Positions 37,749 through 41,148 of a stretch of 64,000 nucleotides of DNA are shown here, piece after piece. Source of the stretch: an uncultured Clostridia bacterium (GTDB lineage: Bacteria; Bacillota; Clostridia; TANB77; CAG-508). A program made the position numbers and the translations under genes. The stretch is from assembly GCA_944391955.1 (NCBI GenBank), contig CALXVG010000001.1:17716-81715 (forward strand). The letters run 5' to 3'. The notes beneath the pieces were generated by a model. That model ran no database searches. It was given only the letters and a program-made list of their open reading frames with translations, and was not told the origin of the DNA. Each line of letters opens with the position of its first letter. Positions within the stretch are counted from its first letter, which is position 1.

Positions 37749-40088
37749 TTATTTTTTTAGGTTAAGACTTATTGCATCTTCGTTATCAAAGAAGTATGAT
37801 GAATCTGTTGTGTCTGTTTGAACTGGATCAATTTCCTCATCATCAGATGCAGTATCAAATGTTATATTCTTTGGATTAAATTTGTTTGTTCTACTTTTCT
37901 TTACATCTTCTGGTACAATTCCAGAATTAAATTTATCAAACTTATATTCTTTAGATTTATGGTATTCTTTATATTTTGATTCTAAGAAATCGACTGTACC
38001 GTAATTTACAAGGTTTTTGCCTTTTTTATCTTTTACTTTATATATACAGTTTTTGAATTTTAAACCTTGAATTTTGGCAACTTTCATTGTATCTTTCCAT
38101 TCCCATGTTACTCCACCTAAAGAATCTGAATAAGCTCCATCTTTCATATTATATGAAGGATGTATTGACCATTCTCTTCTTTGACAGAACTCTTTTTCCC
38201 ACCATGCATATTCATTTGGCAAACAATTACCAAATGTAAGCTTTGTTGGACAATTTGTTGAAAGTGCTTCAAATAAAGCCCCATGATCTCCTCCAAGACT
38301 TGCTAAGCTTGGCACTGCAAATATTGATCCCACTTTAAATTTTCTAAACATTGTAAAAATATCAGTAAGTAATGGGTTTGCATATTTATCAAATTCATCT
38401 ATATATAAGAAATATGGTGTTCTTGTTTTTTCATTTCCTGGACGTCCTTCAACAAAACACATAAACAAACTCAAGAAGAAACGACCAAATCCTAAGTGTG
38501 GTGTGCCACCGATGTCTGCTAATCTTGTACATGCAAATACTACTTCACCATTTGCAAGAACTTTATTAAAATCTAAATTGTTTTGTCTTTTACATATAAT
38601 GTCTCTTACACTTCCTGCTCTTAATAGTTCTTCAAGTTGTGCTGTTGCAAAATGTATATATCTTTGCATATCTTTTCTTCCTGGTGAGTTTTTGTAAAAA
38701 TGTTGTTCAAAATATGCAATTTGGAATTCGTATTTTTCTACTAAATCTGGCTCTGTTTTTAAGTCTTCACACAATTCTTCAACTAAATCGAAATTGGTTA
38801 AACAGTGAAGTAAATCTTCTAATGTTGGCAAATCTCCATTATGACGTCTAGGATACATTTCACCTAAAAATACACATATGTTTTGTAATGCCTGATAAGC
38901 CAAATCTTTCATATATACCAATTCAGCTGTTGCACTTCCTGGATTATACAAACCTTCTACTACAAGCGAAATAATTAAACCTGCTAGGGTAGGACTAGGT
39001 AGTATAAATGGATTTAAACCAGGTGAATTAGGATCTAGCGGATCAATAATATGTACTGGTATATTATAATTATCTGCCACTTGTTTTAGCACCGGTATTT
39101 GTGCTGGGTCTGGAGTGACTGTAGTAATACCAAAGTTTTTGTAAATGATTTTTCCATCTGGGGTTGTTTCGTATATTAAGTTTTTCATATATGCTTTATA
39201 TGCTTTTAATCTTTCCTCAACTGGAACTAACATATTTAGACTAAAATTCTCATTAATGTATTTTTGATTATATGGGCAGTCTAATGTTGCTAATCCGTTT
39301 TTTAAGGCATTATATCCCATTTCTTTTGATGCTTCTCTTAAAAAATATATTTTTTCTAAATCTCTAGCAATCATAGGTTCAATAACCATGGCTGATTTAC
39401 CAGTTCCAGAAGGTCCAACAATTAATGTTGATTCAAATCTTCTTTTTTCTAGTATTTTTACTGGTTTTCCTGTTGACCTGTCATTGCACAAAGTTATTTC
39501 AAAGCTGTAAGGTCCAGAGTTTTCCGGTGTTGGTGTAAGGTCAATTCCTCCAAAGTCCAAAATAGAATCTTCATATGGATTTGGGAAGATTGGGTCATGA
39601 ATTATTTTATATAACCAGAAAAAAACTTTGTAAAATGTCATTAATATAATATATAATGCTATTGATGTAAATGCTGGTTTTGCCAAATATGCAAAGTCAT
39701 TAAATATTTTTTCAGCATTTGGAAGTGCTAAAACTCCCATCCAAGCTAATCTATTTACCCATTGAACAGTCATTGAGATTCCAATTATATAAAATACCAT
39801 CCAAAATGTATAAAAGAATCTTAGTTTTGTTTTATCAGATTTTGCAAACTTTGACTGTATTGAAAAAGCATAGGCGAATACTGGACAAGCAAGTGCAAAT
39901 GTATACATTATCGGTCCCCAGTAATTTACTGACATTCCTGTAAAGCAAATAAACAAGATTTCTACTACTCTATCAATTATAAAATATGCTGTTAACAATG
40001 TAAGTACATAAGTTGCAAATGTGTTTCTATCAGTTCGTAATATTTTTAAAAATTTATCGAATAATTTTAACACGTTAATTTCCCCCAA
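37749..40088 (-). CDS. membrane-anchored P-loop NTPase with VirD4/TraG/TraD (type IV coupling protein)-like layout
   Basis: About 5 N-terminal TM helices. Walker A GPSGTGKS (39393..39416), GLNPF, Walker B YFLYIDEFD (38388..38414), acidic C-terminal tail. The likely start is GTG at 40073, after SD GGGGGA. Confidence 0.55.
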   Translation of the reverse strand: MGEINVLKLFDKFLKILRTDRNTFATYVLTLLTAYFIIDRVVEILFICFTGMSVNYWGPIMYTFALACPVFAYAFSIQSKFAKSDKTKLRFFYTFWMVFYIIGISMTVQWVNRLAWMGVLALPNAEKIFNDFAYLAKPAFTSIALYIILMTFYKVFFWLYKIIHDPIFPNPYEDSILDFGGIDLTPTPENSGPYSFEITLCNDRSTGKPVKILEKRRFESTLIVGPSGTGKSAMVIEPMIARDLEKIYFLREASKEMGYNALKNGLATLDCPYNQKYINENFSLNMLVPVEERLKAYKAYMKNLIYETTPDGKIIYKNFGITTVTPDPAQIPVLKQVADNYNIPVHIIDPLDPNSPGLNPFILPSPTLAGLIISLVVEGLYNPGSATAELVYMKDLAYQALQNICVFLGEMYPRRHNGDLPTLEDLLHCLTNFDLVEELCEDLKTEPDLVEKYEFQIAYFEQHFYKNSPGRKDMQRYIHFATAQLEELLRAGSVRDIICKRQNNLDFNKVLANGEVVFACTRLADIGGTPHLGFGRFFLSLFMCFVEGRPGNEKTRTPYFLYIDEFDKYANPLLTDIFTMFRKFKVGSIFAVPSLASLGGDHGALFEALSTNCPTKLTFGNCLPNEYAWWEKEFCQRREWSIHPSYNMKDGAYSDSLGGVTWEWKDTMKVAKIQGLKFKNCIYKVKDKKGKNLVNYGTVDFLESKYKEYHKSKEYKFDKFNSGIVPEDVKKSRTNKFNPKNITFDTASDDEEIDPVQTDTTDSSYFFDNEDAISLNLKK

Positions 40089-40170
40089 AAATTTTTTTCA
40101 TACATATATATTATCTAATAAAATTGAAAAAAATACAAGAGTTTTTGCGAAATTTGTGCCGATTTTACAT

Positions 40171-40208
40171 AAAAAAACCACTAAACAAGTATGTTTTGTG
40201 GCTTTTTT
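40171..40208 (-). terminator. terminator between the two orphan genes
   Basis: aaaaaagccacaaaacatacttgtttagtggttttttt on the minus strand. Confidence 0.7.
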
Positions 40209-40212
40209 GAAT

Positions 40213-41148
40213 TTATTCTAATATTTTCAAGTTTACTTCTTGAATTTTGTACTTTCCTGTTGTTTCATCTAATACAAATTCACTTAGCGAATTTGACAAA
40301 GTTTCCCCATTTTGTTTTAAGTCTGTTGTCATACATATCTTCATATTCTCAATTTCTAATTTATTCATAACAATGATTTTGAATACTTCAACTTCATGTT
40401 TATTATCTTCACATAATAATACTAGTTGTGGTTTTGTTTCATAACCAGAGTCAAATGTAACAAAATTTTCATAGAAATCTTTTAATAATTTCATTCTATC
40501 TATTAATTTCTTTTCCCAGTCTTCTTCTCTTCTTACTGCTTCGAAAATAAGTTCAGCTGATTTTCCATTTTTAGATACTTTTATTCCTGCATGCATTTTA
40601 AATGTTTTTGCATTTTGCTTTGCATTCAAAGTAGGTTTTATTGTATAAGATGAAAAAGCTTTTACTTTTCTTAAGTATGATATAATTATTTGATTTCCTG
40701 CAAGTCTTTTCTTTATCATTGCAACAGGTTTTGTATTATCTGTTGGTTGCCATTTACACTCTACACCTCTTGAATTTAAAAGGTATTTTCCCATTTTTTC
40801 TAAGCAATATATTCTATATATACCCTTACCTGCTTCTGCTGTAAAATAATATCTTGTAAGGATTTTTGATTTTATTAATTGTTCTAATTTGTTATTTAAT
40901 TTATCTTGTGATTTTATTTCTACGCCTCTAGCTTCCAAAAGTTGATATATTTGTCTTGAAGTTATAAATTCAAATTCATTAACTATTTCTAACACTTTAA
41001 AATGTATATCTGTAATATGTCCAATATTGATTTTATTTATGATTTGGTTAATTGAAACATATCCATCTCTTCCATCGAATGTTTTTATTTCTCCATCTCT
41101 CATTGCAAATGGTGATATAGTAGTTTTTATATCTTTATCTTCTACCAT
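40213..41148 (-). CDS. winged-helix DNA-binding protein with Replic_Relax (replication-relaxation)-like architecture
   Basis: HFKVLEIVNEFEFITSRQIYQLL...LNNKLEQLIKSKILTRYYF...IYCLEKMGKYLL, then a roughly 200-aa alpha/beta part. SD AAGGGGGA. Assignment rests on pattern only. Confidence 0.45.
   Translation of the reverse strand: MVEDKDIKTTISPFAMRDGEIKTFDGRDGYVSINQIINKINIGHITDIHFKVLEIVNEFEFITSRQIYQLLEARGVEIKSQDKLNNKLEQLIKSKILTRYYFTAEAGKGIYRIYCLEKMGKYLLNSRGVECKWQPTDNTKPVAMIKKRLAGNQIIISYLRKVKAFSSYTIKPTLNAKQNAKTFKMHAGIKVSKNGKSAELIFEAVRREEDWEKKLIDRMKLLKDFYENFVTFDSGYETKPQLVLLCEDNKHEVEVFKIIVMNKLEIENMKICMTTDLKQNGETLSNSLSEFVLDETTGKYKIQEVNLKILE

Follow-up and report, generated by a model that had tools for sequence, protein, structure and literature searches.

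We analyzed a 64,000-nucleotide stretch of contig CALXVG010000001.1 from an uncultured Clostridia bacterium (hereafter, the window), where two genes of a putative relaxase and coupling protein pair lie within a run of housekeeping genes. Inspection of the gene order on the minus strand reveals lspA, rluD and rluB, followed by a gene for a 311-amino acid (aa) protein termed RR311, a gene for a membrane-anchored ATPase, and then rpsO and pnp. Both proteins appear as 'hypothetical protein' wherever sources name them. The window is chromosomal, carrying alaS, argS and aspS as well as the genes for RNase Y, PNPase and S15. An initial sequence-only reading had placed both open reading frames (ORFs) between rluB and rpsO, and the ORF list agrees with it. 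The features of the locus are as follows:

37316..37579, minus strand: rpsO (ORF list)
37710..37741, no strand assigned: strong intrinsic terminator hairpin 3' of the ATPase gene, 13-bp stem (terminator scan)
37749..40073, minus strand: gene for a predicted type IV coupling protein (T4CP)-like ATPase, 774 aa from a GTG at 40073 (ORF, Shine-Dalgarno sequence and orthologue lengths)
40101..40146, minus strand: promoter-like block upstream of the ATPase gene, AAAAA-N2-CTTGT-T-rich 17-nt spacer-GATAAT-ATATATGTA (orthologous upstream regions)
40171..40207, minus strand: weak hairpin and T-run 3' of the RR311 gene (read from sequence)
40213..41148, minus strand: RR311 gene, 311-aa Replic_Relax/MOBC-like protein (ORF and PF13814 match)
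41186..41905, minus strand: rluB (ORF list)

The mechanical ATPase ORF opens at a TTG at 40088 (37749..40088, 779 aa), which is the extent adopted in the sequence-only reading. The GTG at 40073 has GGGGGA 7 nt upstream, and a 774-aa ATPase is called independently in relatives of 98% and 95% identity. The true start is most likely this GTG, such that the ORF stands and its length shortens to 774 aa. RR311 begins 37 nt past the rluB stop behind the Shine-Dalgarno sequence GAAGGGGGA, as had been read earlier. The accompanying proposal that the ATPase gene has its own promoter after a terminator survives for the promoter-like block; the hairpin 3' of RR311 is weak and is absent from the terminator scan output.

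In Pfam and NCBIfam searches, the window ATPase itself scores above no threshold, and PDB sequence searches with single sequences and profiles returned nothing useful. Precomputed TraG-D_C matches exist for orthologues at 57-72% identity, one of which adds TrwB_AAD_bind and T4SS-DNA_transf. An exhaustive search of 1.8 billion cluster representatives produced 1268 ATPase relatives; seven of the ten remote relatives scanned (listed at 26-37% identity) exceed the gathering threshold for TraG-D_C, TrwB_AAD_bind or T4SS-DNA_transf. Structural comparison used an AlphaFold model with a mean predicted local distance difference test (pLDDT) score of 66.8 and a core at 80-90. Its top 12 Foldseek matches in the PDB are the Helicobacter pylori VirD4 homologue Cagβ (8dol) and TrwB (1e9s, 1gl6 and 1e9r), with E-values from 2e-6 to 6e-4, a probability of 1.0 and template modeling (TM) scores on the target of 0.40-0.45. 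DndH-C and HerA rank after these, and no FtsK structure is listed among the fold matches. A helical block at residues 383-493 of the model is consistent with the TrwB-like fold, where an all-alpha domain is inserted into the nucleotide-binding domain (NBD). Alignment with hhalign to TraW, the VirD4-type protein of the Enterococcus faecalis plasmid pTEF1, gives an E-value of 2.4e-5 over the C-terminal NBD of the window ATPase. Because orthologues and remote homologues match coupling protein families and the predicted fold matches Cagβ and TrwB, the fold search and homologues identify the ATPase as a divergent VirD4/TrwB-type T4CP, which agrees with the VirD4/TraG-like layout proposed from sequence. 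The ATPase also matches phrog_5156, and tblastn against phage genomes gave no match.

The ATPase divides into the following segments:

39600..40073, minus strand: N-terminal membrane domain, residues 1-158 (hydropathy, AlphaFold2 helices and invariant columns)
39393..39416, minus strand: Walker A, GPSGTGKS, with G220, G223, G225 and K226 invariant (ORF and alignment)
38388..38414, minus strand: Walker B, YFLYIDEFD, with D559 invariant (ORF and alignment)
37752..37871, minus strand: acidic C-terminal tail (...IDPVQTDTTDSSYFFDNEDAISLNL) (alignment, pLDDT and charge count)

About five N-terminal transmembrane helices had been read from the sequence. The membrane domain is upheld and its helix count depends on the method, where hydropathy gives three strong segments (residues ~22-45, 54-72 and 133-155) plus two weaker ones and the AlphaFold model has six helices between residues 2 and 158, of which five follow residue 15. 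This domain is unusually conserved for a T4CP, with many invariant loop residues (TDRNTF, YWGP, SKFxKSD, LPN and DPIFPN). Both Walker motifs, recomputed from the frame, fall where they were first read; they are invariant in 23 orthologues and kept in homologues of 28-37% identity. The C-terminal tail IDPIQTDTTDSSYFFDNEDAI is likewise highly conserved, which is unusual for a T4CP, and is predicted to be disordered (pLDDT <50). It carries 13 acidic versus 7 basic residues, its D-x-P-I core is kept in distant homologues, and it is a candidate partner-docking peptide.

RR311 matches PF13814 (Replic_Relax) at 26.0 bits against a cut-off of 25.3, covering profile positions 1-106 only, which form the N-terminal, winged-helix half. 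Although marginal, this match bears out the earlier description of a Replic_Relax-like protein with a winged helix-turn-helix (wHTH). It is credible because the prototype TraX, also of pTEF1, scores 28.5 bits, the syntenic orthologue at related locus L088 scores 30.7 bits over profile positions 1-180 of 191, and 10 of 15 members of the RR311 (RR) subfamily match, with a best E-value of 1e-8. The Replic_Relax fold combines a wHTH with a PD-(D/E)xK domain (PMC3424549), and PF13814 is the MOBC relaxase family (PMC5357655 Table 1; PMC12857230). Because of that correspondence, RR311 can be classed from its sequence as a Replic_Relax member and as the relaxase-type partner of the pair, which corrects the earlier statement that no relaxase is visible. 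Among the profiles proposed for searching, Replic_Relax is thus matched by RR311, TraG-D_C, TrwB_AAD_bind and T4SS-DNA_transf only by homologues of the ATPase, and FtsK_SpoIIIE by neither protein. Three segments of RR311 can be distinguished:

41011..41148, minus strand: predicted-disordered N-terminal segment, highly conserved (SPFAxRxxEIKTFDGxDGYVSxNQI) (alignment and pLDDT ~30)
40774..41010, minus strand: winged-helix DNA-binding domain, residues ~47-125 (Pfam range, hhalign and invariant residues)
40234..40731, minus strand: C-terminal alpha/beta domain, residues ~140-305 (AlphaFold2 secondary structure, Foldseek and conservation)

The winged helix aligns by hhalign with that of TraX over residues 50-125, and it weakly matches the KicB/MukF wHTH. 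In a low-confidence model (mean pLDDT 56.6, shallow alignment), the C-terminal half adopts a PD-(D/E)xK-like alpha-beta-beta-beta-alpha-beta topology, for which Foldseek returns the PD-(D/E)xK-fold protein XisH (2okf/2inb; probability 0.99, TM 0.6). The same model matches uncharacterized phage G gp146 and a phage JL protein, both from Bacillus phages, over the full length (E 5e-5). PADLOC matches of RR311 are weak (HTH_IX, E 0.001; NDT_II-A, E 0.0014).

To consider catalysis, the active-site residues of TraX were taken from the pTEF1 sequence and secondary citations. The motif reads D152 ... E170-x-E172 plus Y181 in pTEF1, and the Y181 numbering agrees with PMC6736028. A profile-profile alignment of the RR family with seven TraX members is significant across the wHTH only and not across the catalytic domains. 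Across 15 chromosomal and megaplasmid members of the RR subfamily, T63, Q66, Y114, G120, W133, E203, R206, R207 and Y226 are invariant or nearly so, where T63 and Q66 are invariant residues of the winged helix, and E203, R206, R207 and Y226 belong to the C-terminal domain. D248 and D276 are both invariant only among close CAG-508-type orthologues; D248 also holds in chromosomal orthologues at 35-37% ATPase identity, and D276 is not strictly kept there or on megaplasmids. From these patterns, the active site of RR311 may be present in modified form, or catalysis may have been lost.

The pTEF1 locus presents the same pairing directly, with TraW followed by TraX. On pAD1/pTEF1, the VirD4-type TraW (737 aa, with an N-terminal membrane region and TraG-D_C/TrwB_AAD_bind) adjoins TraX, a wHTH plus PD-(D/E)xK Replic_Relax protein whose PF13814 score is similarly weak to that of RR311, which is 50 aa longer. 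The settings differ in that TraW and TraX share one orientation on a conjugative pheromone plasmid, which encodes a full type IV secretion system (T4SS) and has oriT2 located between the two genes, whereas the window pair sits in a chromosome, was ancestrally convergent, and lacks a nearby T4SS or recognizable origin of transfer (oriT).

RR311 has >5000 database relatives, the best 120 of which are 77-100% identical and nearly all exactly 311 aa long. Scanning one genome per GTDB species revealed a relative in at least 541 species, all uncultured Clostridia, including Clostridium sp. CAG:452, CAG:571 and Candidatus Scatovivens, where Scatovivens belongs to order TANB77, family CAG-508 (PMC13106387). 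Orthologues in hundreds of species share 67-88% identity at 310-311 aa. Informative loci were available for 74 species; in 69 of these, RR311 is followed within 10 kb by the ATPase gene, at a median distance of 129 nt. The neighborhood of rpsO is not constant, and within CAG-508 the outer flank can be rpsO or a MurJ-like gene.

Inspection of the 10 kb around the pair found no integrase, repeat or T4SS gene, and the absence of T4SS genes within ~10 kb extends from the window to >80 related loci. These results match the initial impression that an integrase, a T4SS channel gene and flanking repeats are missing at the locus. The plasmid, integrative conjugative element (ICE) or integrative mobilizable element (IME) that would carry a MOBC gene is replaced here by a core chromosomal context that is identical across species and lacks an integrase. 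In related genomes the pair does not sit at the border of an ICE, the two genes co-occur widely, and the ATPase falls outside housekeeping families, all of which are outcomes that leave the initial proposal of an orphan pair standing.

Orientation is where the window departs from its relatives. The genes had been described as co-oriented, which is correct for the window and not elsewhere, where 68 of the 69 linked loci are convergent, with the ATPase on the opposite strand from RR311. Co-orientation is confined to locus L033 and the window's own species-level clade; it is common to 98%- and 95%-identical relatives from other samples and absent at 81-86% identity. Comparison of these loci indicates that the convergent arrangement is ancestral and nearly universal and that the window co-orientation is a recent inversion of the ATPase cassette, which moved whole with promoter block, gene and terminator. 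The promoter of the second gene after a terminator is then a by-product of the inversion and not module design, since the whole cassette was inverted. No significant inverted repeats flank the cassette. An invertible-segment switch was considered and rejected: because inverted repeats are lacking and the arrangement is fixed at 95-98% identity and absent at 81-86%, the inversion is an evolutionary rearrangement.

The space between the two genes holds additional genes in some species (AAA_14/DUF4143, TetR plus MMPL, radical-SAM/SPASM, a leucine-rich repeat protein, DUF559 and a zinc-ribbon protein). The inserted genes are miscellaneous, and the gap was rejected as a hot-spot for mobile elements or defense. 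In two 85-86%-identical relatives (L005 11238..11462, L009 ~10940..11540), RR311 and the ATPase gene are separated by a gene for a 74-aa DUF559 protein (Vsr-like endonuclease), which has GC-rich inverted repeats of ~45 nt on either side and resembles a small mobile insertion. The same relatives carry a gene for a 376-aa protein with a prepilin-like N-terminus (MKKKNNNGITLIALIITIIVMLIL...; L005 7318..8448, and L009) between the ATPase gene and rpsO; the window lacks this gene. Response to immunotherapy has been tied to a conserved TANB77 pilin (PMC11680825), to which the 376-aa protein may or may not correspond.

To place selection on the pair in context, identities to the window proteins were compared across 48 species. 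RR311 reaches a median of 72.5%, close to rluB (71.4%) and rluD (70.2%), and the ATPase one of 49.1%, compared with 42.7% for lspA. Both genes thus evolve like ordinary housekeeping genes of their class. Conservation extends to the ~45-nt block upstream of the ATPase, which is shared by 71 distinct orthologous sequences, including homologues of 30-37% identity. We read this block as a vegetative, sigma-A-like promoter; a simple sigma-70 scan omits it, where the -35 element matches 3 of 6 positions. A sporulation-sigma promoter was rejected, as the block lacks a CATA-type -10 and does not conserve the GG expected of a sigma-F-like -10. The block is the sole conserved non-coding element at the window locus, where no notable repeat is found.

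Linkage of the two genes persists at depth. The convergent pair is kept at 37% ATPase identity with pyrG as the outer flank (L088) and at 28% with fmt and HU as the outer flank (L096). At 35% identity (L095), an S1-domain gene and the RR gene face a convergent ATPase gene at a locus that has no rlu genes and is flanked by polA and radical-SAM genes. A gene for a two-domain S1 protein lies directly upstream of RR311 in ~60 loci and has been lost from this position in the window subclade. The CAG:452-type S1 gene (L001 5980..6787) is called as pieces of 205 aa and 60 aa, while that of L095 (11950..12774) is intact at 274 aa and has a C-terminal S1 domain to which the 60-aa piece corresponds. The CAG:452-type gene is split or may rely on a programmed frameshift or on readthrough.

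The S1-then-RR arrangement recurs outside chromosomes, on megaplasmids of spore-forming Bacillota (Bt407 BTB_502p and Clostridium perfringens pJFP838A) and on plasmids of Paenibacillus, Brevibacillus, Aneurinibacillus and C. beijerinckii. The megaplasmid RR proteins are the closest non-chromosomal relatives of RR311, with ~24-31% identity over tblastn-matched stretches and 20-26% in full-length alignment. In the three plasmids examined (P. thiaminolyticus, Bt407 and C. beijerinckii), an ATPase homologue lies 7-11 kb from the RR gene. As in most TANB77 loci, the megaplasmid RR gene is directly preceded by an S1-domain gene; unlike the window pair, the RR and T4CP genes are plasmid-borne, non-adjacent and set among helicase, topoisomerase, recJ and tmk genes. 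MOB-suite recognizes no relaxase on any S1-RR megaplasmid, and the RR homologue could be the unrecognized relaxase of those plasmids. Five of these replicons (L092, L093, L105, L106 and L107; Brevibacillus, Aneurinibacillus, Paenibacillus, B. thuringiensis and C. perfringens) span 359-722 kb. They share a backbone block in which a RecD-like helicase gene is divergent from a response regulator-S1-RR run, followed by an HTH regulator, a metal-dependent hydrolase and recJ; tmk is also present on the B. thuringiensis and C. perfringens megaplasmids. MOB-suite classes these megaplasmids as non-mobilizable, though some are typed with mating pair formation (MPF) genes.

A MOBC relaxase with its own VirD4-type T4CP is a known mobilization module of mobilizable plasmids and some streptococcal IMEs (PMC5704250), such that the unusual aspect here is the chromosomal, housekeeping setting. 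CloDF13 MobB/MobC and the streptococcal IMEs with MobC and VirD4 likewise form two-gene MOBC-T4CP modules without mating-pore genes (PMC5704250, PMC5357655). CloDF13 is compared through its published description, as its sequence record is frameshifted and leaves mobB and mobC unannotated. These modules are mobile, on a plasmid or an integrase-bearing IME, and patchy, whereas the window pair occupies a single, fixed core locus across at least hundreds of species, with conservation at the level of housekeeping genes. Bacillus phages offer a second precedent outside conjugative elements, where a 'DNA translocation operon' places a MobC-like protein of wHTH and nuclease fold beside a VirD4-like ATPase (0305φ8-36 orf200/201 and SPO1 gp27.3/27.4; PMC3357382). 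Unlike the window ATPase, those of the phages frequently have no membrane domain, and the phage operon is dispensable in the laboratory.

Building on homology, domain architecture, intact ATPase motifs, deep conserved linkage and vertical inheritance, we propose that the pair is a plasmid-type DNA transfer and replication (Dtr) module, a MOBC-like RR311 plus a VirD4-type ATPase, that was fixed in the chromosome of a TANB77/CAG-508-like ancestor and kept by purifying selection as a host function. We assign this reading a probability of roughly 0.5. Mechanistically, we infer an interaction between RR311 and the ATPase, a DNA substrate, nicking, and independence from a T4SS channel. The winged helix of RR311 would recognize a specific DNA site, which the PD-(D/E)xK-like domain would hold or possibly nick. 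RR311 would then dock on the membrane-anchored hexameric ATPase, plausibly through its conserved disordered N-terminus and the acidic C-tail of the ATPase, which would spend ATP on translocating or remodeling this DNA at the cytoplasmic membrane. The two-domain S1/oligonucleotide-binding (OB)-fold protein encoded upstream of RR311 in most lineages would be a likely third component. Candidate host roles include, for example, sporulation- or division-linked DNA handling and cell-to-cell DNA transfer.

Several observations weigh against this proposal. TraX residues D152, E170, E172 and Y181 cannot be mapped onto RR311, and E203 is the sole acidic residue invariant across the wider RR subfamily; because of these two results, RR311 may not cleave DNA. 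The structural model of RR311 is itself of low confidence. No conserved oriT-like inverted or direct repeat was found at the locus, and the hairpins between the genes differ in sequence between species and resemble plain bidirectional terminators. A conserved oriT between the two genes was rejected as a candidate, given that the intergenic hairpins are completely different between species. Linkage is also incomplete, where 5 of the 74 loci lack an ATPase gene within 10 kb and two distant ATPase homologues lack an adjacent RR gene. Convergent genes form no operon, so co-regulation is not implied, and adjacency within a single order could partly be inherited synteny.

A different account, possible though doubtful, is one in which RR311 is a nuclease-dead DNA-binding regulator or nucleoid-associated protein, the ATPase works independently on protein or another substrate, and adjacency is inherited synteny from an ancient insertion. 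Steczkiewicz et al. class Replic_Relax as a predicted transcriptional regulator (PMC3424549), and the catalytic triad is not demonstrably kept in RR311. Gene organization fits as well, in that RR311 ends an rluD-rluB(-S1) operon, the convergent ATPase has its own strongly conserved promoter, and some loci have no ATPase nearby. Inherited synteny, however, does not readily explain adjacency kept to 28-37% ATPase identity despite changes in both outer flanks, including at the locus without rlu genes, or the joint presence of both homologues on unrelated megaplasmids. Functional MOBC-T4CP pairs also have family-wide precedent (PMC5704250).

Alternatively, the pair may be a still-active mobilization module with a chromosomal oriT, an immobilized IME active in trans that hijacks a co-resident conjugative channel and thereby mobilizes all or part of the chromosome in an Hfr-like manner. 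The intact ATPase motifs are compatible with such activity, and the gene content equals that of CloDF13-type plasmids and streptococcal IMEs with MobC and VirD4 (PMC5704250, PMC5357655). We consider this unlikely, as the locus yielded neither an integrase nor att repeats nor conserved oriT-like repeats, and the same position in at least hundreds of species with housekeeping-level conservation is unexpected for dependence on a sporadic helper. The highly conserved membrane domain further suggests a fixed cellular partner rather than variable helper T4SSs.

More speculative, and improbable on present evidence, is a T4SS-independent DNA translocation machine that serves as a core function. That is to say, a relaxase-derived, site-specific binder or nicker of the RR311 type, an S1/OB-fold partner and a T4CP hexamer, whose conserved multi-helix membrane domain would itself serve as the conduit, would move chromosomal or replicon DNA across the septum or between cells, for instance, in TANB77-type Clostridia and possibly on the megaplasmids of other spore-forming bacteria.

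A related possibility, which we rate lower still, is a chromosome- or replicon-handling pump of spore-forming Bacillota that acts across the septum in the manner of SpoIIIE, FtsK or TraB, with RR311 as a site-specific loader; TraB-like and sporulation roles had also been suggested in the sequence-only reading. FtsK/SpoIIIE and Streptomyces TraB are membrane-anchored hexameric P-loop DNA pumps that operate with no T4SS channel and take their guidance from specific DNA motifs or loader domains, and T4CPs share the FtsK/HerA fold. The organism is predicted to form endospores because it encodes SpoIVA, full-length with all three Pfam domains present (window 10456..11934, minus strand), the locus adjoins the division-related genes ftsX and M23 peptidases, and all plasmid homologues found are on megaplasmids of spore-forming genera. 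In contrast to FtsK/SpoIIIE, the window ATPase has neither an FtsK_SpoIIIE Pfam match nor a gamma domain, its fold matches rank T4CPs first, and its promoter block reads as vegetative sigma-A-like rather than sporulation-sigma.

The least likely of the explanations, and a very improbable one, is the anti-plasmid or anti-phage system also raised in the sequence-only reading, comprising a HerA/FtsK-class ATPase and a PD-(D/E)xK nuclease: an ATPase plus nuclease is a common defense architecture, PADLOC's best match for the ATPase is a weak mad8 (E 2e-5, 22 bits) and the DndH C-domain and HerA are among its fold matches, but the near-universal, single-locus, syntenic, vertically inherited and highly conserved distribution differs from typically patchy, island-borne and fast-evolving defense systems, no other MADS components were found by PADLOC, and the extra genes that separate the pair in some species are ordinary cargo.

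Additional features of the window were also recorded. The rpsO leader (37580..37700, minus strand; ...GGTAAAATACCTTTTACTTAACTTAATAGAGATATCCGGCTTTAAGTTCAGTTTTAGGC...) is nearly identical in 81-86%-identical relatives (L008 and L009) and reaches no Rfam family at gathering score; it may be an S15 autoregulatory leader. An Rfam scan of the window gave a single match, one tRNA. A 544-aa polytopic membrane protein without a Pfam match (43345..44979, minus strand) is encoded directly upstream of lspA here and in related loci. At 32650..33544 (plus strand), the gene for an RluA-like pseudouridine synthase is broken just after ...RLDKDTS, leaving two overlapping ORFs (150 and 152 aa). The gene is intact (297 aa) in the 86%-related L005 but appears fragmented also in L108, a 98%-identical strain assembled independently, so it is probably a real pseudogene and not a sequencing error. 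Four large predicted surface proteins are encoded in a run at 23456..30600 (minus strand), with Ig-like and polysaccharide deacetylase, cadherin-like, SH3 and dockerin, and beta-propeller/LVIVD domains, where the dockerin hints at cohesin-dockerin surface assemblies.

A relaxase paired with a coupling protein is taken as a hallmark of a mobile element, and elements are classified as 'mobilizable' on the strength of such pairs. The pair described here appears instead to be inherited vertically at one housekeeping locus by an entire uncultured gut order, with conservation like that of rRNA-modifying enzymes. MOB-typing tools would miss the pair or mislabel these chromosomes, and the same protein family on Bacillota megaplasmids without a recognized relaxase merits attention. 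If the pair does constitute a T4SS-independent machine, it would represent a new physiological use of conjugation hardware. If the takeover by the host proposed here is correct, the pair would offer a rare case in which the DNA-processing half of conjugation was domesticated, and it would show what a T4CP is capable of without a secretion channel.

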